Below the pieces are notes generated by a model. That model ran no database searches and was not told the DNA's origin. It saw only the letters and a list, made by a program, of their open reading frames with translations. Below are positions 9,013-24,261 of a DNA stretch of 64,000 nt, piece by piece; the stretch's first letter is position 1; each line of letters starts with the position of its first letter. Position numbers and translations under genes: made by a program. Source of the stretch: Alphaproteobacteria bacterium (GTDB lineage Bacteria > Pseudomonadota > Alphaproteobacteria > Rs-D84); NCBI GenBank assembly GCA_033345275.1, contig JAWPOF010000007.1, positions 21,760 through 85,759 of the forward strand. The letters are read 5' to 3'.

Positions 9013-11499
9013 TCAAGCTGCATATGAATAGCCCGACAAATAATCAGAAATGATTGTTTGCTTTTGCCCATCAAATTTTTCCTGGGCATTACCAGCCTTA
9101 ATCGGTTTCCAGTTATACATTTTACCCATGTGCGTGTTGCGACCTGTTTCCAGCATGTCCCAATATGCCATCAGTTCCATGAATTTATCTTTGTGGTCTT
9201 CGTCCCACTTGTCCATAACCTCGTTGCGTTTTGATATACGTTCGTTGATTTCTTCGATACTTTTGGTCGCGTTTTCCCACTTATTTATTCGATCTGTTTG
9301 TGCATTATTTCGATCAACCGTGTCATTATAGTTTTGCAATTCTTGTTCATATTGTTGCCCCATCTGTTGATCGGTTGCCCAATTTGGATTGCGCGTTATT
9401 TGTGCCAATTCGTTTGGAATCGCCTGTAATCTTTGTTGAATTTGCGCCAATTGATTCGCGTATTGGATTTTTTCATTAATCAATTCATGATTGCGCATAT
9501 CTATTTCCTGCTGGGAAGCACCAGGAATGTTTTGATTTTGTTGAATCTGAGCATCTAAATTTGCGATTTGTTGACTGATAGCCAGAACATTTTGATTAAG
9601 TGAATTCTGTTCCTGAATTAATTTATGATGGTTGTTATAGCGCTGAATCGCAGGATCTTTGGCGCGCTGGTCCAGGCGGGCTTTTTCTGCGCTCTCGGCG
9701 GTTCTGGCGTTCTCTAAATTTGTTTTTTGCTGTTTAAAGTTCACATCGGTAATAACCTGTTGACCGGGTTGCAAATTCTGATTTACATCATTTTTATTTT
9801 GGTTTTCTTGTTGAATTAATGTTTGGTCCTGGGCATTCATTGCGTTACGTCGCGCGTCCGCCGCCGCCCTGTCGGCTGAGTTTTGTGTTTCCCATTCGGA
9901 CTGTTTCTTTCCCAAGCGACCGCGGTGCCCCTTAAACTTGCTGCCCGACAGGTTGATTGCATTACCAACCATTGTGATACCATATCCGATACCCATAAAC
10001 GCGGTTTTAATACTTTTGTCCAGCGCCTTGGTAACAACTGCCATCCCCTCGTTTTTATTCCATGATAATTTGCCGTCTGAAAAGATGCTTAACTTTTCCT
10101 TGCCCATGGCATCCATGATCTTGCTGGTGGTATATCCGTATTTAATGACAGACAAAACCTCCATCGCAGTTTTAGCTTCATCCACCTTGCCATCACGGAC
10201 GGCAATCATAATCATCTCTTCGATAATTGCATGCATTTGGCGACCGTTGCGCAAGGCACCTTCGAACGCCTTGGGCATCGTGTTGGACAGCTCCCCCATG
10301 GTCTTTGCGAACCATTTGAAATGGTCGGTCGCCTTGGGCGATTTATACAATAACCCCTTTTCTATATCGCTCGCCTTGTCCAGAACGCCCTTAATCCCGT
10401 CAGTTGGTTTTACCTTAGCCTTGTGTATTGCGGCGACGATATTTTTTGCATTAGGCGAAAAATACAGCCGATCGCCCTTGAACTTTACATACTTTTCAAA
10501 TACATCTGCATATGTTTCATCCGCCCACTTGGAAACCTGTTGCCATGGGGTCAGTTTATCATCACGCTTTGGCGGGATATAATCTTTGCTGTTTTGGTCA
10601 TCATAGCCTGTCAGTTCTTTGGCGCGATCAAACGCAGTTCTTATCTTGTCGCTGGGGAATGCATCACGTGTTTTTTCTTCGCTGTACAGCCTGCGCAAGA
10701 TAATATCATACTCGCCATTTTTGAAATTAAGAAATTCCGCACTGCTTGCCAGATTAGTATCATCGTCTTCAAACCCAGATGAAATCTTGTCAAAATCACA
10801 ACCCTTAAAATCAATGGACACTAGCTCGGTTGTACTGGTACGGTAATAATCAAGATATTCAACCAGGTCTTTGAGTTGTTTTTGCAGTGTGGGATCGCTG
10901 TCGTATTTATATTTGCCGTCTTTTTCAGTAATTCCGCTTACCAGATTATCATAATCAATCAAGTTGTTTCTTGTCAAAAACACCCTGAAAAATCTTTCAT
11001 TATTTACGATAACGTCGCGCAACTTGGCAATTTCTAGTTTAGCATCTGGCTTTGCTTTTGTTGAATTGAATAATTTGCCCGCACCAAAATAATCATCCAA
11101 GAAATTTAGTGCCTTGTCGTTCTTGCCACCAAAATCAATTAAGCCTTCTAATTTCTTTTTATTCGCAGCCAATGCACGGAATGCACTGCGGAACTCTTTA
11201 AAGAATTTAATCCATTCTTCTTCCGTCAGATGAAAATCTGGACCATTTGGGTCCGGTAATGGCTTGGATTCCCAGTTGCCTTTAACCTGATGCATCAGGC
11301 TGTTGCGCCAGTCCTTCATGTGTCCACGAAAATCATCCTTGCCCAGATATTCCTGGTATTTTGCCATAACTTCAGCAGGCATCTTTTTTATACGCAACTG
11401 CATAAAGTATTGTAATAAAAAATTTTCCATTGACACATCGGCCATATTTGCACCTTTATCTATCCCATTTATTATAGTGCAAATTGCGGGGAATTTCAA
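9013..11499 (-). CDS. Large hypothetical protein with C-terminal Gln/Asn-rich coiled-coil region (possible secreted effector or phage-derived structural protein)
   Basis: 828-aa ORF (alternative start MADVSMENF at ~11448). The C-terminal ~270 aa is heptad-like and Q/N-rich (QQIANLDAQIQQNQN..., LAQIQQRLQAIPNELAQI). No recognisable enzymatic motif. Confidence 0.4.
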   Translation of the reverse strand: MKFPAICTIINGIDKGANMADVSMENFLLQYFMQLRIKKMPAEVMAKYQEYLGKDDFRGHMKDWRNSLMHQVKGNWESKPLPDPNGPDFHLTEEEWIKFFKEFRSAFRALAANKKKLEGLIDFGGKNDKALNFLDDYFGAGKLFNSTKAKPDAKLEIAKLRDVIVNNERFFRVFLTRNNLIDYDNLVSGITEKDGKYKYDSDPTLQKQLKDLVEYLDYYRTSTTELVSIDFKGCDFDKISSGFEDDDTNLASSAEFLNFKNGEYDIILRRLYSEEKTRDAFPSDKIRTAFDRAKELTGYDDQNSKDYIPPKRDDKLTPWQQVSKWADETYADVFEKYVKFKGDRLYFSPNAKNIVAAIHKAKVKPTDGIKGVLDKASDIEKGLLYKSPKATDHFKWFAKTMGELSNTMPKAFEGALRNGRQMHAIIEEMIMIAVRDGKVDEAKTAMEVLSVIKYGYTTSKIMDAMGKEKLSIFSDGKLSWNKNEGMAVVTKALDKSIKTAFMGIGYGITMVGNAINLSGSKFKGHRGRLGKKQSEWETQNSADRAAADARRNAMNAQDQTLIQQENQNKNDVNQNLQPGQQVITDVNFKQQKTNLENARTAESAEKARLDQRAKDPAIQRYNNHHKLIQEQNSLNQNVLAISQQIANLDAQIQQNQNIPGASQQEIDMRNHELINEKIQYANQLAQIQQRLQAIPNELAQITRNPNWATDQQMGQQYEQELQNYNDTVDRNNAQTDRINKWENATKSIEEINERISKRNEVMDKWDEDHKDKFMELMAYWDMLETGRNTHMGKMYNWKPIKAGNAQEKFDGQKQTIISDYLSGYSYAA

Positions 11500-12768: not shown

Positions 12769-13440
12769 ATGAAAATAAATATTCGCACAATACTTTTAAA
12801 GTCATTACCATATTTGCTGTCAATTGCAGGTGGAATTATTTTGTATACGGGTGCCATAGATAATGCCCCAAATGACAATATTCGTGACCTGGTGATAAAT
12901 GTGTCGGCATCACTGCTGTCGATTCCATTGGTTTTTTTGCTGTATGACTATACGAATTCGCGTGTTGCAAATCAGATGAAGCGTACGATGATTAACAGCA
13001 TGACGGACAAGTTAAATGTATTGATGATGAATATTATTGGGTTGTTGCGGGACTCGATGGGTGTGCACAGCAAACTAACGACTGAAAACTTGAACAGAAT
13101 GTTGATTTTACACACAACAGAAATTTCAAAACGACTGAAAATAACGCCGCGAATTTTGGAAAAATTGCACGAATATCATAACGATTTGGATACATTGTTG
13201 TTTCGCAACAGTCAAAATTCTGTGCTGAATGCCGAACAGGTACAAATTCTGTCAGGACTAGTACGCGATATGACCCACCTTATAAACGAAAATAAATTTC
13301 GCCGTAATCGGCACCTGTCTGCAAAATACACAGAATCAATGATGGGGCGAATTTTAGATTGGATGGAATCTGATAATGTTGCGGCGATGAACTTGGCGCA
13401 GCATATATCAGAAACGACCGAGACAACGGACAAAAAATAA
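12769..13440 (+). CDS. Hypothetical membrane-anchored protein
   Basis: 223 aa, two N-terminal TM segments followed by a soluble helical region. No recognisable motif. Confidence 0.35.
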   Translation: MKINIRTILLKSLPYLLSIAGGIILYTGAIDNAPNDNIRDLVINVSASLLSIPLVFLLYDYTNSRVANQMKRTMINSMTDKLNVLMMNIIGLLRDSMGVHSKLTTENLNRMLILHTTEISKRLKITPRILEKLHEYHNDLDTLLFRNSQNSVLNAEQVQILSGLVRDMTHLINENKFRRNRHLSAKYTESMMGRILDWMESDNVAAMNLAQHISETTETTDKK

Positions 13441-13547: not shown

Positions 13548-13623
13548 GGGGACATAGCTCAGTTGGTAGAGCAAATGACTTTTAATCATTGGGTCCAGGG
13601 TTCGAGTCCCTGTGTCCCCACCA
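13548..13623 (+). tRNA. tRNA-Lys (anticodon UUU)
   Basis: GGGGACATAGCTCAGTTGGTAGAGCAAATGACTTTTAATCATTGGGTCCAGGGTTCGAGTCCCTGTGTCCCCACCA. Near-identical architecture to E. coli tRNA-Lys, anticodon loop CTTTTAA, 7-bp acceptor stem, encoded CCA. Confidence 0.95.
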
Positions 13624-13630
13624 AAAATTC

Positions 13631-13659
13631 AACGACCGCTTGCCGGTCGTTTAATTTTT
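13631..13659 (+). terminator. Rho-independent terminator after tRNA-Lys
   Basis: Hairpin aacgaccgcttgccggtcgtt followed by taatttttg. Confidence 0.7.
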
Positions 13660-13759
13660 GTATGGGGCGCGGACGAGAACCCAAAAAGGGTTCGGAACGT
13701 TAGTTGCTGAAAACAAGCGTATGCGCCGTTTGAACCTTACGAAGTGAATGGGGATTTAC

Positions 13760-13778
13760 AGTCCCTGTGTCCCCACCA
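13760..13778 (+). repeat. 19-nt direct repeat of the tRNA-Lys 3' end (agtccctgtgtccccacca), an att-site-like scar
   Basis: Exact copy of tRNA positions 13605-13623, located 136 nt downstream of the intact tRNA. The upstream flank gggatttaca is a degenerate T-arm. Confidence 0.8.
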
Positions 13779-14055
13779 CAATAACCTGCTGAAATCAGCA
13801 TGTTTTTTGTTTGTTTGCCCCCACCGCCCGGCGGGCAATATCTTCTATCTTATGGGTGTGTGCAATCGCCTGGTGTGTGAACTTGAACTGTCGGCACAAC
13901 TAAAACGAGAATACGAAACGGAAATCAACTATACGGACAACTATCAATCCCGCCTGACCGTCATGCAAAAATGGTTCGGTATTGTGTTTGTGGAGTAAGA
14001 AATATTGCTTGATTTGTTTTTTTTATATATTACGCTAAAAAGAAACGGCTCAAAA

Positions 14056-15681
14056 ATGCTTCTTGTAAAAAATCTTGAGAAGTCTTTTGATAGTAATGTA
14101 ATTTTCAAAAACTTGAATTTTTCTGTTCAGGACGGTGAAAAAGTCGCTGTTGTCGGTTTAAATGGTGCCGGAAAATCCACCTTGTTTAGAATTTTATTGA
14201 ATCAAATTGATAGTGATGCAGGCGAATTCTATATGGGTAAAAGTCCACGTATTGGTTGGATGCCACAAACAATAGATGAATTGAATCTGCCGGATGATGT
14301 TATTGTTTATGATTTCTTGCGTTCGGGGCGACCTTTGGCCGAAATAGAACGACGTATGACGGAAATATACACCAAAATGGCCGAAGGTGATGATTCAGAA
14401 GAATTGTTACAGCAATTGGGGGTGTGTCAATCTGAATTTGAATACTGGGATGGATATACTGCGGAATCTGAATTAGAAACTATGATAGACCAGATGGGTA
14501 TCGATCGTCAAAATCTGAACAAAAAGTTGGGCGAATTATCAGGCGGTCAAAAATCCAAGATTTCATTTATCCGAACATTATATTCACGCCCCAGCATTTT
14601 ATTTTTAGACGAGCCGACAAACCACCTAGATGCCACCAGTCGTGAATGGATGACGGATTATTTGGTTGCAACAGATGCGTCGGTAATATTTATATCGCAC
14701 GATGAAGAATTCATAGACAAGGTCGCGGATAAGACTCTGTATTTAGATGCTATGATGCATACCGGGACATTATATGGGTTTGGGTACAAACGTTTCTTGC
14801 GTACATTGGCGGAAACAAACGAGAGTTTGGAACGGCAATTACAAAAGCAAATGCGTGAAATAAATCGTATCCAGGCATTTGTTGACAGCCAACGTGGCAA
14901 ATCGGGTAAGGCAAAAAGACAGGCGCAAAGTCGTGAAAAAATGTTAGATAAAATGCGTCAGAATCTGGTGGTTGCACCCATGGAAAAGAAAGATATTGAT
15001 TTGGAGCTAAGTCCAAATCGTGAAGCGGATATTTTGCCAATCACGGTGGAAAATTTAAACTTTTCATACGTTGCCAATAAGAAAGTAATTAAAAATCTTA
15101 CATTTTCATTAAATCAGGGCGAGAAGTTTTTAATTGTTGGGGAAAATGGCGCAGGTAAATCGACCTTGTTAAAATTATTACACAAAATATTAAAACCTGA
15201 TTCTGGTATTGTTCGTATTGGCAAAAAAACCGACTTGGGATACTATGCCCAGGAATACGAGACATTAAACCCAAATATAACAATTCTGGAAAACGCATCA
15301 AGTGTAACAAATATCAGTACATCAAAACTGCGTTCTGTTTTAAATCACTTTAATTTTGTTGGGGACAAGGTAAAACAAAGCGTAAAAACAATGTCGCCAG
15401 GCGAACGCAGCCGTTTAGAGCTGGCCAAATTATGTCTTGGTGGTGCCAATGTTTTATTATTAGACGAACCAACAAATCATCTGGATGTAGCAACCAAGAA
15501 AACCATCGCACAAAGTTTTTCAGAATACGGTGGTACACTGATTATAGTCAGCCATGATTTAGAATTTTTGAAACACCTGGGCATAGATAGAATGCTAATG
15601 TTGCCCAGTGGGCGATTACAGTTTTTTGATGAAAACGTTGTTCGTAGATACATGGAACAAGAAAAACTAAAAGGACATTGA
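14056..15681 (+). CDS. ABC-F family ATPase (EttA/Uup/YheS-like translation factor), two tandem ABC domains
   Basis: Two Walker A motifs (GLNGAGKST, GENGAGKST) and two signature motifs (LSGGQKSKISF, MSPGERSRLELA). Charged inter-domain linker, no TM domain. Likely start is MLLVKNLEKSF, since the track's TTG/ATG at 14005 adds a hydrophobic extension. Confidence 0.85.
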   Translation: MLLVKNLEKSFDSNVIFKNLNFSVQDGEKVAVVGLNGAGKSTLFRILLNQIDSDAGEFYMGKSPRIGWMPQTIDELNLPDDVIVYDFLRSGRPLAEIERRMTEIYTKMAEGDDSEELLQQLGVCQSEFEYWDGYTAESELETMIDQMGIDRQNLNKKLGELSGGQKSKISFIRTLYSRPSILFLDEPTNHLDATSREWMTDYLVATDASVIFISHDEEFIDKVADKTLYLDAMMHTGTLYGFGYKRFLRTLAETNESLERQLQKQMREINRIQAFVDSQRGKSGKAKRQAQSREKMLDKMRQNLVVAPMEKKDIDLELSPNREADILPITVENLNFSYVANKKVIKNLTFSLNQGEKFLIVGENGAGKSTLLKLLHKILKPDSGIVRIGKKTDLGYYAQEYETLNPNITILENASSVTNISTSKLRSVLNHFNFVGDKVKQSVKTMSPGERSRLELAKLCLGGANVLLLDEPTNHLDVATKKTIAQSFSEYGGTLIIVSHDLEFLKHLGIDRMLMLPSGRLQFFDENVVRRYMEQEKLKGH

Positions 15682-15682
15682 T

Positions 15683-16729
15683 ACGCAAGGATTTGGCTTA
15701 CAAATAAAACCCGCAGGCAATAATTGTAATCTAAGGTGTAAATATTGTTATGCGGCCCCTTTCGCCAAATCATGTATCAAAATAATGCCCCTGGATATTC
15801 TTGAAACTGCAATAAGAAAAAATTTAGCTTTTCAAGGCAGTGTATTTTTCTCTTGGCATGGTGGTGAACCGTTACTTGCGGGTATAGACTTTTTCAAAAA
15901 GGCAGTTGAATTTATAGATAAATATAAAAACAGTGAACATATTGTAACAAATATGGTGCAAACAAATGCTACACTAATAACCCCAGAATTTGCTCGGTTC
16001 TTCAAGGATAATGGTATCACTGTTAGTGTCAGCATTGATGGGCCAGAATTTTTACATAATTTGAACCGTGTTGACCATGCAGGGATTGGTAGTTTTTCGA
16101 ATGTAATGCGTGTAAGGGATGTTGGACTGCAACCACCGGTGATTGCAACAATTACGCAAGACAGCATAAAATACGGCAAAGAAATATTTGATTTTTTGGT
16201 TGTCAATGGGTTTACCGATATCAAATTTAGTCCAGTTTACGATTCTTGTTCTGATAATTTTAGTGTTAGTTCGGATGATTGGTTTTACTTTTTAAAAGAT
16301 GTATTACACGCATGGTTTGAACATGGTGACACATCTGTCAAGGTTCGCGAAATAGATGAAGTTGTTGCGTGGTTGTCAAATAAAACGATGAACCTGTGTG
16401 CAAGCAAACATTCTTGCTTAAGTTGGATATCTATAGACCCAGATGGGAATATTTATCCATGTGAATATCTGCGCAGTGAAATGCCATACGGAAACATATT
16501 AGACATGGATTTGGCTGATGTTTACAAGACTGCTTCTTATGCAAGATTTAAAAAACTATTTTTACACAAACCAGAAAAATGCCAGAAGTGTCGTTTTTGG
16601 GATTTGTGTGGAAATGGCTGTCCTGCGACTCGTGTCAAGGACGGTCTAATGACCCATGACGGTGTCTATGTTTATTGCGAGGAAAGAATCAAACTGTTTA
16701 ACGAACTAAAAATTATTCTTGAATCCTGA
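15683..16729 (+). CDS. Radical SAM / SPASM-domain enzyme (anSME / peptide-maturase-like); apparent start codon ACG
   Basis: In-frame translation from 15680 gives DTQGFGLQIKPAGNNCNLRCKYCYAAPF (CxxxCxxC rSAM cluster in the canonical N-terminal position). The C-terminus carries a SPASM motif CQKCRFWDLCGNGCPATR. No ATG/GTG/TTG lies between the upstream in-frame TAA (15668) and the motif. A good SD AAAAGGA sits 7 nt before ACG 15683. The first in-frame ATG (15785) is downstream of the Fe-S motif. Confidence 0.75.
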   Translation, partial: TQGFGLQIKPAGNNCNLRCKYCYAAPFAKSCIKIMPLDILETAIRKNLAFQGSVFFSWHGGEPLLAGIDFFKKAVEFIDKYKNSEHIVTNMVQTNATLITPEFARFFKDNGITVSVSIDGPEFLHNLNRVDHAGIGSFSNVMRVRDVGLQPPVIATITQDSIKYGKEIFDFLVVNGFTDIKFSPVYDSCSDNFSVSSDDWFYFLKDVLHAWFEHGDTSVKVREIDEVVAWLSNKTMNLCASKHSCLSWISIDPDGNIYPCEYLRSEMPYGNILDMDLADVYKTASYARFKKLFLHKPEKCQKCRFWDLCGNGCPATRVKDGLMTHDGVYVYCEERIKLFNELKIILES

Positions 16730-16771
16730 GCATAAATATCTTCATGTACAAAGATAGACAGGAGAACAAAC

Positions 16772-16867
16772 ATGAAAAAACAAATGTTGTTGGCCGCTAT
16801 CCATAGAATAGAAGAGCAATCTGCTATGAAATGGCGTGGCATCATGGTCAACTGGATGAAATGTTAA
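16772..16867 (+). CDS. Small peptide gene (31 aa, MKKQMLLAAIHRIEEQSAMKWRGIMVNWMKC), candidate RiPP precursor co-transcribed with the rSAM-SPASM gene
   Basis: Strong SD (gacAGGAGAacaaacATG), an ATG, 31 sense codons and a TAA immediately followed by a strong intrinsic terminator. It lies 43 bp downstream of the rSAM gene on the same strand. The C-terminus is rich in Trp/Lys (KW...NWMKC). Confidence 0.55.
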   Translation: MKKQMLLAAIHRIEEQSAMKWRGIMVNWMKC

Positions 16868-16870
16868 TAT

Positions 16871-16895
16871 TCCCCCGTAATGGGGGGATTTTTTA
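16871..16895. terminator. Rho-independent terminator (tcccccgtaatggggggatttttt) ending the rSAM-peptide transcript; also serves the convergent PLD gene
   Basis: 7-bp GC-rich stem, 4-nt loop, T6 run. On the opposite strand a short A-run precedes the hairpin. Confidence 0.8.
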
Positions 16896-17480
16896 CCTAT
16901 ACATCCCCCACAAATACTCAAATTGTTTGCTGTATTCTTGTGCTGGGTAGGTCAGGAAGATACAGTTTTCGTTGTTGTACTTGGTGGCGGCGGTGGTCCA
17001 GTTATAGGAACCCGTCACCATACTCATATTATCAAAGACGGCAAATTTATTATGTTCAATCTTGTGCTGGCGGTTGGTGCGGACGGGAATGCCGGCGGCG
17101 ACCAACTCCCCAATCATGGACGATTTATGCCCAGCCATAGTTCGGTCTGTGACAATTCGCACCCTTCCGCCCCGACGGTGGGCGGCAATAATGGCGTTCG
17201 CAATTTTCGGATTGGTTATGGAATATACGGCAACGTCGATTTTATCGGCCCGACCCAGCTCGGCAATTATGCGGTCTTCGCATTCGGTGCCGGGGGTGAA
17301 ATATGATTCTATGTGTGCGGGTATGCTGGGTGGTGCGACCGTCCGTGTGGGCAATTGCGCCCCAACGCCAACCCCAATGGCAAACGCAATCCCAATAACA
17401 AAAGTCCATTGTCTGACAACCATACAACCCCAAACAAAAGACCACTCAAATAAAGAGTGGTCGGGAGTTGATCGATTCAA
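16893..17480 (-). CDS. Phospholipase D-family protein (Nuc-like endonuclease / PLD superfamily), secreted
   Basis: HKIEHNKFAVFD matches the HxK(x)4D PLD motif. N-terminal signal/TM (VVRQWTFVIGIAFAIGVGVGA). Size (~170 aa mature) is typical of Nuc-type PLD nucleases. Confidence 0.7.
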   Translation of the reverse strand: MNRSTPDHSLFEWSFVWGCMVVRQWTFVIGIAFAIGVGVGAQLPTRTVAPPSIPAHIESYFTPGTECEDRIIAELGRADKIDVAVYSITNPKIANAIIAAHRRGGRVRIVTDRTMAGHKSSMIGELVAAGIPVRTNRQHKIEHNKFAVFDNMSMVTGSYNWTTAATKYNNENCIFLTYPAQEYSKQFEYLWGMYR

Positions 17481-17665
17481 GAACAGAACTCTGCGCCTTC
17501 AGGATAAACCTTATTATATAGCAACAGCATCCCGACCATTGTCGGGACATTAGAAGTTGTGGTTCTCGGGCGATCAAACCCGTTCTCACTTTTAATGTCG
17601 CTTGTACAATTACTTGCACACACATATTGTACAACATTTCCCACAAAAATCAAGGGCGGTGTGTT

Positions 17666-18532
17666 TTACATCACGATCTGTAATACTTTATTTACATTTC
17701 TGTCGGGTGATTTTCCCATTTCTAAATCTTCTTTGATATCATATAACAGATTTACTACAGATTGAAAACGCTGTCTTTCTGGGAAATATACGTCTCCAGT
17801 GTCGCCATATCCTGCCAGCAATTCTTTTGCACCATTGCCATAGTAATAGTGCATGTCGCGTGATGGTTCGGCATATCCCGCTTCGCCAAAGTCAATAAGC
17901 CCCACGATTTTTTTTGTGTTTGTATCGAACATCATGTTGCCAAAATGCAAATCACAGTGTGTCAAAACTGGTTTTACAGGATATTGTTCAGATAAGTATT
18001 TATATCTGTCGCGCACGGCGTTGATGTGCTGAATCTGCTCATCTGTGAATTGTTTTTTTACTATGTCAGGAAAGTATTCGTCAAACACTTCTAAGCTGTC
18101 TGTGTAATGTAATGGTGCATCTTGCAACCAACTGTAATCATTCTCCAGATTATGTAATTCGCGTGCAATTTTACCGATTTGACGTAATATATCGGATTTT
18201 GTTTCTTCGTCAAAAGAATCGTGCATTTCCTGGGTGTATGTCGTGCCGTGTACCAATGTTTCGCCAATGATGTTTCGACCTGACTTGTCCTTTTTGTGAT
18301 ATAAAATTTCTGGAACCTCAAAGCTCAACTTGCCTTTTAGAAAGTTTAATACTTTGATTTCTTTGTCAGGATTGTTAAATGGCGCGTCTTCTTTTTTAGG
18401 TATTCTGAATACAACGCTGTCATTAACCAATACAGCGATGACATTTCGTCCCGAACCTATTTTTTTTATACTTTTTATTTCTATTTCAGGAAACGTTTCG
18501 ATGATGGTTTCCTGGATTTGTTCAGTTGTCAT
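17666..18532 (-). CDS. Phosphotransferase-family protein (APH / choline-kinase-like kinase fold)
   Basis: Brenner motif HCDLHFGNMMFD and the downstream IDFGEAGYAEPSRD (DFG-like) typical of the aminoglycoside phosphotransferase / CotS / choline kinase family. Confidence 0.75.
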   Translation of the reverse strand: MTTEQIQETIIETFPEIEIKSIKKIGSGRNVIAVLVNDSVVFRIPKKEDAPFNNPDKEIKVLNFLKGKLSFEVPEILYHKKDKSGRNIIGETLVHGTTYTQEMHDSFDEETKSDILRQIGKIARELHNLENDYSWLQDAPLHYTDSLEVFDEYFPDIVKKQFTDEQIQHINAVRDRYKYLSEQYPVKPVLTHCDLHFGNMMFDTNTKKIVGLIDFGEAGYAEPSRDMHYYYGNGAKELLAGYGDTGDVYFPERQRFQSVVNLLYDIKEDLEMGKSPDRNVNKVLQIVM

Positions 18533-18914
18533 TTTTTTATTCCTGTGTTTTTAATTGCCAAAACACCCCAGAAATTCGTATGAATTTACTGGCTGTTTCG
18601 CAACAAATTATTGCGTGATTATATTTTTTTGAGATTTTGCGGCGGGTCAGTGCAATTGCACTATATTGACACATGCATTATAAGGTATGATATTGCAAAA
18701 GTCAAGATATGTGTTTCGGGGGACAAAAATCGTTTTTTACAAATGCACAACTTCTATGTAAGGAAATTGTGATGCGATGTATTCGGCGGCCAGTCTTCGG
18801 TGGCATTGGTGTGCGGTCTTTTCTGTGCACATCAGGCATATGCGGTCCAGTTCGTCCGGATTGCGCCCCGTCAATGGCGCACGCCCCGCAATCAGGCGTC
18901 TGTAAATCGGTTCG

Positions 18915-19736
18915 GTGTCGGCCCAGGTTGCCCCGGACAGAAATGTTGATACACGTGATGTAGAATGGTTAAAAAAATCACTGACCCAGTTAGATTGTTA
19001 TGAACCCGATACCCGTGCCAGCGAAAGTGCCGACAATCCAAACCCGTATCCGAACCAGAAGCTGTTTGATGCGATTGAAAAGTTCAGAAAGTTACAAAAA
19101 ATCAAAGAGCGTGGCGCTGTCAAACCCGGCTACTGGACAGAAGTAAAAATAAATCAAGAACTGGAAAAGAAACAAAGCGAGAAAAAAGATATGAAAGATA
19201 TTGATACAAACAAAGTGTCCGATATGAAATTTGAACAAGCATACAATAAATTACAATAACCCGAAGGTGGCTATACAGACGGTAAAGACCAAGTTGATGA
19301 TGAACCAACCAACATGGGAATTAAACAAAGCACGCTGGACAGATACGCTAACACGCATCCAGACAAAAATTTCCCAGCAGATGTAAAATATTTAACAGCC
19401 GCACAGGCCAAAGAAATTTATAAAAACGAATATTGGGACAATACAAGAATCCCAGAAATCAAAAACGACAGAATACCTGATGCAGTTTTTGATATGAATG
19501 TGATGGGAGGTGCTGGGAAGACAGTTCAACGTGCACTAAATTCTTTCTTGGACGCAAACTTGGTTGTTGATGGCGCAATAGGCAGCGAAACAATTAAATC
19601 CATAAATGCTATTCCCGATAACGCGGTCAACAAATTTATGGTCGCACTAAAATCTGAAAGAATAGATTACTTAAAACGCACAAAAAACTGGGTAACGGCA
19701 AAAAACGGTTGGTTGAAAAGAGTAAATAAATACTAA
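18915..19736 (+). pseudogene. GH108-like lysozyme / PG_binding_3 protein interrupted by an in-frame TAA (19257-19259) immediately before the catalytic EGGY motif
   Basis: Track ORFs 18915-19259 and 19314-19736 are in the same frame. Read through the TAA, the sequence gives ...FEQAYNKLQ*PEGGYTDGKDQVDDEPTNMGIKQST..., matching the GH108 N-terminal motif (F..A...L.hEGGY...DPGGETN.GIT). The C-terminus VDGAIGSETIKSIN resembles a peptidoglycan-binding domain. Confidence 0.6.
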
Positions 19737-20186: not shown

Positions 20187-20411
20187 ATGGGCGCAATTGA
20201 AAAGCTGGCACAGGCTCATGGGTTAACCTGCTCAGGCTTAGCAAGGCTCAGTGGCTTGGATGCCAGTACCTTTAACAAAAGCAAGCAGTTTTCACCGGAC
20301 GGTACACCGCGTTGGCCATCATGTTGTACGATTGCAAAAATTATACGCGCAACAAACACTACATTAGTAGAATTTGCCCAATTATGCATGTCGGGGCAGG
20401 GGGAAGAATAA
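20187..20411 (+). CDS. XRE-family helix-turn-helix DNA-binding protein (74 aa)
   Basis: HTH_3-like segment GLTCSGLARLSGLDASTFNKSK. Small size typical of Cro/CI-type regulators. Confidence 0.55.
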   Translation: MGAIEKLAQAHGLTCSGLARLSGLDASTFNKSKQFSPDGTPRWPSCCTIAKIIRATNTTLVEFAQLCMSGQGEE

Positions 20412-23844: not shown

Positions 23845-24178
23845 TCCACTGTAAGATGCACAGGGCATGGCTGGCCAGAAATGGTCAGAGGAAAGTCCGG
23901 ACTGCACGGGACAGCGTACCGGCTAATATACCGGGCGGGGCAACCCGACGATCAGAGCAACAGTGACGTAAACGATTAAATTCGAGTGAAACGGGCAATC
24001 TCTGCGCGCAGCAACTTCAAATAGGCCCCCTATATGTGTCCCGCATCGGGGGCGGGTAGAAGGCTTGACATATCGCAGTAATGCAATATGCAGATTAATC
24101 ATGCCCACTACCGTGGGGTGGTATGCGAAACATACTGGCCTGCGGCATGACAGAATCCGGCTTATATGTTCATCTGCA
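23845..24178 (+). ncRNA. rnpB: RNase P RNA (bacterial type A)
   Basis: Universally conserved blocks present: GAGGAAAGTCCGGACTGCACGGGACAGCGTACCGG (P4/CR-I region), later ACAGAATCCGGCTTAT (CR-V / P4 3' strand). Followed by terminator atgcgcccacgggcgcat+T7 at 24181-24206. Ends approximate. Confidence 0.85.
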
Positions 24179-24261
24179 CCATGCGCCCACGGGCGCATGT
24201 TTTTTATCTTGTATATTTGTTTGCTTTTTTATGATAGAATATATCAAAACGGAGAGAGTAC

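Follow-up and report, generated by a model that had tools for sequence, protein, structure and literature searches.

A probable RtT-like repeat unit downstream of tRNA-Lys in an uncultured gut alphaproteobacterium

A stretch of about 118 nt on the tRNA-Lys gene of an uncultured gut alphaproteobacterium is probably an RtT-like repeat unit, a distant relative of the tyrT repeats of E. coli (rttR, RF00391). The unit lies in a 64-kb window, a term used here for the whole stretch of DNA that was analysed. A preliminary description of the window had read the same site as the scar of an integrative island, inserted between two copies of the tRNA 3' end and almost wholly deleted, leaving attL/attR remnants. 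The evidence on the anatomy, distribution and relatives of the unit is presented below, together with the other explanations that have been considered.

The tRNA-Lys gene and its duplicated 3' end

The tRNA-Lys gene is found directly 3' of a gene for a 223-aa protein (12769-13440), an arrangement which is syntenic throughout Candidatus Enterousia (30+ related loci). The last 19 nt of the tRNA, AGTCCCTGTGTCCCCACCA, occur exactly twice in the window, even when three mismatches are allowed, and no match was obtained in 100 dinucleotide shuffles, so that the second copy is not expected by chance. The window search and the shuffles thus confirm what the preliminary description had reported, namely an exact 19-nt copy of the tRNA-Lys 3' end at a distance of 136 nt (13624-13759); the degenerate T-arm-like flank that it mentioned is also present, as GGGGATTTAC preceding the second copy. 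Two parts make up the spacer: an intrinsic terminator and then the conserved structured unit, which begins 38 nt after tRNA-Lys on the same strand (Table 1).

Table 1. Features around the tRNA-Lys gene (positions in the window)
Feature	Position	Strand	Evidence or remark
tRNA-Lys (anticodon UUU)	13548-13623	+	ARAGORN call tRNA-Lys(ttt); Rfam tRNA 77.5 bits
19-mer, copy 1	13605-13623	+	Last 3 nt of T-loop, T-stem 3' strand, acceptor 3' strand, discriminator A, CCA
tRNA trailer with intrinsic bidirectional terminator	13624-13660	+	Hairpin 13631-13651, then T-run; terminator scan, RNA fold
Probable RtT-like unit (X), about 118 nt	13661-13778	+	Covariance model R1, covariation, E. coli RtT link
Unit 5' arm, GGGGCGCGGAC	13664-13674	+
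Unit hairpin H1, GAACCC/GGGTTC	13677-13693	+
Unit variable middle domain	13694-13747	+
Junction of the 29-nt deletion removing hairpin H3, ATGGGG	13748-13753	+	Comparison with L001
Unit linker, ATTTAC	13754-13759	+
Unit tRNA-derived tail	13760-13778	+	Exact 19-nt copy of the tRNA-Lys end
19-mer, copy 2	13760-13778	+	Exact; 3' end of the unit and left border of the strain-variable segment
Second terminator-like hairpin and T-run	13779-13807 (hairpin 13787-13800)	+	Terminator scan
Accessory segment, 5.4 kb	13779-19220		blastn: absent from conspecific L001
Leader region with non-conserved small ORF	5' of the ABC-F gene		Leader of 277 nt
Ribosomal-protection-like ABC-F	14056-15681	+	Passes the NCBI cut-off, 403 bits against 380
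Radical SAM/SPASM gene	15785-16729	+	Pfam, NCBIfam
PLD nuclease	16893-17480	-	Pfam, NCBIfam
APH-like kinase	17666-18532	-	Weak similarity to APH(2'') and Mph enzymes
Two small ORFs	18709-19259		Part of the accessory segment
GH108 lysozyme-like gene, inactivated	19224-19736	+	TAA at 19257-19259 where L001 has GAA

The second terminator-like module has a homologue (CGATAACCTGCTGA...) directly 3' of the tRNA CCA in six other Enterousia species. In the conspecific contig L001, a 29-nt trailer follows both copies of the 19-mer, giving a 48-nt direct repeat formed by the 19-mer and the terminator.

Anatomy and folding of the unit

At its 3' end the unit repeats the tRNA exactly and in direct orientation, from the T-loop to the CCA; its 5' part carries the T arm and the acceptor 3' strand in inverted and degenerate form. 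When the unit is folded, both ends close into a helix resembling the acceptor and T stems and the NCCA tail stays free. Hairpin H1 stands next to the inverted part: its 3' strand repeats the 5' strand of the T stem and the start of the T-loop (GGGTTCG), its G-run follows the local T stem, and the variable small hairpins come next. The interiors of the Enterousia units open with GGGGCGCGGACGAGAACCC-loop-GGGTTCG and close with a hairpin, a short linker and the tRNA tail. The relation with the neighbouring gene is also seen in an alignment-based test that includes the T-arm part, where, among 19 contexts, there are 11 in which the best match of the 5' region is to the unit's own tRNA in reverse complement; the E. 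coli 5' region scores 14 against the reverse complement of its own tRNA, versus a mean of 5.8.

A covariance model (R1) was trained on 12 Enterousia-type units from seven Enterousia loci and five metagenome contigs, all of them associated with tRNA-Lys and with no information from E. coli. Its sole match in the window is 13661-13778, with 123.8 bits and E about 1e-30, R1 E-values being rough. In the 12-unit alignment (A1), 94.8% of the cells pair and 11 pairs are changed on both sides, values which were reached by none of 500 shuffles, while controls in which the alignment was slid pair at 19-51%. This alignment supports the closing helix, hairpin H1, which is invariant, and three further hairpins in which compensatory changes occur. 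Moreover, GNRA tetraloops (GAAA, GCAA) and G-U wobbles sit on the + strand of the units.

The window copy is peculiar in having no hairpin H3, owing to a deletion of 29 nt between ATGGGG repeats with respect to L001; every other complete Enterousia-type copy of the set keeps this hairpin. The deletion is of the slippage type, and the window copy may be impaired.

Relationship with the RtT repeats of E. coli

The 178-bp repeats of tyrT reportedly each end in 19 bp of the tRNA-Tyr 3' end, a finding ascribed to Egan and Landy in 1978 and to Rossi et al. in 1981. A 171-nt rtT RNA, released by processing, is said to have been described by Bosl and Kersten in 1991 as affecting or modulating the stringent response in E. 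coli. More recently, rttR has been described as processed from the tyrT transcript, its mode of action being given as unknown (bioRxiv 10.1101/2024.07.17.603846), and RtT members adjoining tRNA-Asn and tRNA-Lys genes in Pasteurellaceae have been reported as expressed RNAs (PMC4986893).

The unit of the window resembles these repeats in several respects. Both follow a tRNA gene directly, on its own strand, and have as their last part a copy of its 3' end with CCA; both carry an inverted T arm and acceptor strand in their 5' part, followed by a hairpin of the GAGAACC-loop-GGTTCGA type, and the overall plan of closing helix, small hairpins and free NCCA tail is the same. This plan is shared by the minimum-free-energy folds of one E. 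coli unit, L001 and L014, including H1. The same TCG-to-GAG change in the inverted T-loop is common to E. coli and Enterousia-type units, and tandem copies are found among the relatives of the window unit. Outside the tRNA-derived parts, the unit has GCGAAGCG-type hairpins, CCCGAAGGG and GAATAATCC in common with E. coli and intermediate units. The layout of the unit is also that of the Rfam RtT consensus (...GGAUGAGAACC-loop-GGUUCGA...GCGAAGCG...CGAGUAAUCCUUCCCCCACCACCA), and the E. coli units end in AATCCTTCCCCCACCACCA.

Unlike the E. coli repeats, the window unit is a single copy on the tRNA-Lys of an uncultured gut alphaproteobacterium. It is separated from the tRNA by an intrinsic terminator, whereas the E. 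coli spacer is terminator-less; it has neither a tpr-like ORF nor H3, and its middle domain is different.

Covariance models were also run in both directions. When R1 was run on 2.5 kb of E. coli K-12 covering tyrT-tyrV-rttR, its four best matches were the RtT units: the one that separates tyrT from tyrV and the three found 3' of tyrV, of which one is the annotated rttR. On 50 kb of the same genome these units were hits 1, 2, 3 and 5, at low scores of 12.8-17.1 bits, and one spurious match of 12.8 bits was found in narL. Each of the E. coli matches is full length and stops inside the CCACCACCA tail, where 3 nt remain to the tRNA-Tyr-type end. The E. coli tRNA genes themselves score about 2 bits. 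In the opposite direction, and with relaxed thresholds, RF00391 matches the units of L115 and L107 over its full length at 29.1 and 25.4 bits, under a gathering threshold of 45; it gives no match to the window or L001 copy, even at E<=10. As RF00391 does not reach the window copy, this is classed as a distant RtT-like unit and not as a member by the Rfam criterion. When a gammaproteobacterial unit was compared directly with E. coli genomes by blastn, the sequences were too diverged for a match, and the link emerged only through covariance models. The membership of the window unit depends on a transitive chain of matches, and part of the resemblance could be convergent, as both elements derive from tRNA top halves.

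The unit in Candidatus Enterousia

Relatives of the locus were found through the 223-aa gene upstream. An exact-protein look-up led to conspecific metagenome contigs with 98-99% identity, and a genome scan led to 33 species from animal guts, labelled Candidatus Enterousia or unclassified Alphaproteobacteria, in nearly all of which tRNA-Lys follows the gene. The unit is absent from many Enterousia species. At least 12 of them have a second copy of the tRNA end 140-187 nt downstream, with homologous interiors, and where the tRNA end is a variant (...GTTCCCACCA, in L018 and L020) the second copy carries the same variant. One Enterousia species (L042, 6426-6740) has a tandem array, formed by a full RtT-like unit, a terminator and a truncated second unit consisting of the 5' half only.

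The conspecific contigs differ precisely at this point. L004 has the tRNA and its terminator without the unit, while L001 has the unit, the 48-nt direct repeat and an intact GH108 gene, without the insert of the window. In L002 and L003, the tRNA CCA is immediately followed by a 502-aa Phage_integrase gene. The window and L011 share a further arrangement, in which the unit is followed by the accessory segment.

These data bear directly on the scar reading, according to which a large island was integrated at tRNA-Lys and nearly all of it was deleted, leaving attL, a random remnant and attR. The direct repeat of the tRNA 3' end, the empty site in L004 and the integrases at the hotspot in L002 and L012 are all in its favour. 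However, the interior is not random: in every examined locus with a second copy it is the conserved structured unit with its compensatory changes, never island DNA, and its boundaries, sequence and structure are conserved in at least 12 species and far beyond. The claim is also contradicted by the homologues at other tRNA genes and at a tmRNA gene, and by the link to the E. coli RtT. An occupied state was looked for in about 45 related loci, and none has an island, or island genes, between the two copies; where there is an insert, it follows either the tRNA CCA (L002, L012) or the CCA of the unit (window) and is never inside. As to remnants of an integrase, which the preliminary description proposed to seek by tblastn, the L002 and L012 integrases give no match in the window and none near other units, and no Pfam or NCBIfam integrase is found among the ten largest ORFs of 9.0-21.7 kb. 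The collapsed scar is thus already largely refuted, and we consider it extremely improbable.

The ORF 13744-13998, which the preliminary description had envisaged as a possible conserved ordinary gene, is not a conserved one: it has no family match, and its homologue in L029 contains an in-frame stop. The fallback of the same description, a small duplication of the tRNA end, comes closer to the truth than the island scar, and its suggestion of an island-cargo context stands in part: the tRNA-Lys hotspot, the integrase genes of L002/L003 and the variability of 13779-19220 agree with it, but the 223-aa gene is core and syntenic. Displaced tRNA fragments of the attR type share with the window a direct repeat that starts in the T-loop, the use of tmRNA genes and, at the tRNA-Lys locus, variable DNA and integrase genes abutting such repeats. 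They differ in that the DNA between the repeats of the window is a conserved structured unit and not mobile-element DNA, with no integrase linked.

The similarity between units does not follow that of their surroundings. In L044 the unit has 98.6% identity versus 70% for the flanking gene (both at the nucleotide level), and in L041 the unit has 93% identity versus 56% protein identity for the flanking gene, which, judged from these comparisons, points to horizontal exchange or strong constraint.

A functionless local duplication has also been weighed, in which a fold-back or tandem copy of the tRNA 3' portion would be neutral and the RtT resemblance convergent. Both arms of the unit derive from the adjacent tRNA, RF00391 does not detect it, the window copy tolerates the loss of a hairpin and many Enterousia species do without the unit, all of which fits such an origin; yet the compensatory changes fall in an interior that is not tRNA-derived, conservation of the unit is very high by the standard of the neighbouring coding gene, and the unit shares motifs foreign to the tRNA with E. 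coli and intermediate units. A neutral duplication is therefore regarded as very unlikely, and an RtT-like unit remains the preferred explanation.

Homologues beyond Enterousia

A scan of metagenomes with the H1 motif gave 75 matches, about 25-30 of which are true homologues. These sit 41-64 nt after genes for tRNA-Lys(UUU or CUU), tRNA-Ser, tRNA-Val, tRNA-Arg or tmRNA, usually with a terminator in between. Most of them end in the 3' end of their own neighbour gene, although the copy is short or absent in some; the tail copies begin 17-20 nt from the gene end, and some units are tandem. With R1, one copy was found in most of these loci and two in L042 and L118, always beside a tRNA or tmRNA gene. 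The window has one copy; a second copy, in tandem or partial, is found in L042, L048 and L118. Many of the contexts belong to the core genome, such as serS-tRNA-Ser-unit, tRNA-Ser-unit-SRP RNA-dnaX and tRNA-Val-unit-asd.

In L054 (671-1220), the gene upstream of the RtT-like unit is a one-piece tmRNA gene (tag ANDDNYALAA), whose 3' end is copied at the end of the unit; therefore, the family is not restricted to tRNA genes. In L107 (3279-3680), the order is tRNA-Ser, RtT-like unit, SRP RNA and dnaX, and the tRNA 3' end, the terminator and the 5' arm of the unit form one long inverted repeat, with chance matches to plant miRNAs in Rfam.

Other known RNAs and elements were tried as candidates and rejected. 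ARAGORN found no tmRNA-like or permuted tmRNA, and the Rfam tmRNA models gave matches at chance level only. An SRP RNA, suspected from the dnaX neighbourhood of L107, proved to be a separate gene beside the unit. An attP arm of a phage or prophage was sought by two pattern scans of IMG/VR (2.9 million viral contigs), which gave either nothing or chance matches in coding sequence, and by blastn against the INPHARED phages, which gave chance matches only; no copy of the unit was found in either collection. No unit copy was found adjoining an integrase gene, and the literature offered nothing relevant on miniature integrative elements or on tRNA-like sequence downstream of tRNA.

The behaviour of the unit could also be that of a miniature integrative element, lacking an integrase and holding little beyond attP, which would be moved in trans by tRNA-targeting tyrosine integrases, with the 19-mers as attL and attR. 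Presence and absence in conspecifics fall exactly at the repeats (L004 empty, L001 filled, with its 48-nt direct repeat), unit similarity is uncoupled from the flanking gene in L044 and L041, homologues are found at several tRNA genes and a tmRNA gene with the local 3' ends and some in tandem, the block of identity begins, like typical integrase targets, in the T-loop, and insertions bearing integrases are known at the same tRNA. Against this, no circular or attP form was seen, and copies were found neither in the 2.9 million viral contigs nor beside an integrase; tyrosine-recombinase synapsis would have to take place on a very small circle, of 155-185 bp; the compensatory changes in hairpins and the GNRA loops point to selection on RNA; homologous recombination between the 48-nt repeats can account for loss; and the E. 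coli RtT repeats are stable chromosomal features. Mobility of this kind is accordingly held to be unlikely. Non-autonomous elements with att sites at their ends, of the CIME (cis-mobilizable) or MITE-like type, are similar in that the unit is small, non-coding, flanked by att-like repeats and strain-variable, and can stand in tandem with other inserts, but the unit is at least ten times smaller than the CIMEs described, gave no evidence of excision, and its structural conservation fits an RNA.

Possible expression of the unit

Returning to the RtT-like reading, a route of expression can be proposed by analogy with the tyrT operon of E. coli. A strong terminator lies directly upstream of the unit, and there is no room for a promoter of its own; therefore, any expression would depend on transcription reading through the tRNA terminator. 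The tRNA 3'-processing machinery would then trim the unit at the CCA, because its tail mimics a tRNA 3' end, and a small stable RNA would be released, of about 155 nt if it started at the tRNA 3' end.

The insertion hotspot and neighbouring genes

The tRNA-Lys site is a real insertion hotspot. In the window, the accessory segment joins exactly after the CCA of the unit and begins with the terminator module, and homology with L001 resumes at the start codon of the GH108 gene, which is the right border of the segment. Neither an integrase nor a right-hand repeat was found in it, and other species have its genes singly downstream of tRNA-Lys, as a mosaic. The segment appears to have been exchanged by recombination, on the left through the tRNA-end identity in the unit and on the right through the lysozyme gene, and integrase action in its acquisition is possible. 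The duplicated tRNA end would, by its sequence, offer a second copy of the insertion target at tRNA-Lys.

Several genes of the segment deserve comment. The ABC-F protein is not on record in an exact-sequence look-up, and together with the APH-family kinase it could form an antibiotic-tolerance cassette. In the radical SAM/SPASM ORF (15785-16729), the ATG start lies downstream of the CxxxCxxC motif of the protein itself: CNLRCKYC is found in frame upstream of the ORF, 13 codons after a stop and without an intervening ATG, GTG or TTG, and NCBIfam aligns the ORF from model position 34. Loss of the start codon, or use of a non-canonical one, is probable for this gene. The ORF 18915-19259 runs in frame into the GH108 gene from upstream.

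The stretch 11079-11208 of L001, replaced in the window, is a conserved intergenic module with a near-consensus promoter (TTGAAA...TATAAT) and two terminator-like hairpins. The module is located between the RtT-like unit and lysozyme-type genes in many Enterousia species (L004, L019, L022, L032, L038, L039, L041 and L044), and it may be a small RNA or a regulatory leader. Further downstream, a family of 74-aa proteins (window 20187-20411), with no Pfam or NCBIfam match, has one to several paralogues near tRNA-Lys in many Enterousia species, and a bacterial class A RNase P RNA gene (23853-24180, 172.6 bits) lies about 10 kb downstream of the unit. On the other side, an ORF of 828 aa (9013-11499, - strand) has no Pfam match and adjoins a gene with an Mtd_N domain. 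The stretch 9018-11440 gives no blastn alignment to most conspecific contigs, only L010 matching, while its flanks are 99% identical; the ORF may be a hypervariable surface or tropism-type gene.

Meaning for the RtT family

The unit of the window adds a member to a known and poorly understood family. The comparison suggests that RtT reaches well beyond Enterobacteria and Pasteurellaceae, to an uncultured gut alphaproteobacterium, to several tRNA genes and to a tmRNA gene. A broader proposal, which we regard as speculative and rather doubtful, is that RtT-like units form a Proteobacteria-wide class of fold-back copies of tRNA and tmRNA top halves, repeatedly created, exchanged and moved, taking the tails of their hosts and providing secondary attachment sites for islands; if this were true, they would be mobile or recombination-generated elements, and more than a by-product of the enterobacterial tyrT operon. 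In practice, RtT-like units will give false attL/attR pairs in island callers that use repeats of tRNA fragments. Finally, RtT was described in 1991 and its function is still unclear; the comparative set assembled here, with its fold-back anatomy, tRNA-specific tails, presence or absence within a species and island DNA at the CCA, could aid the study of that function.
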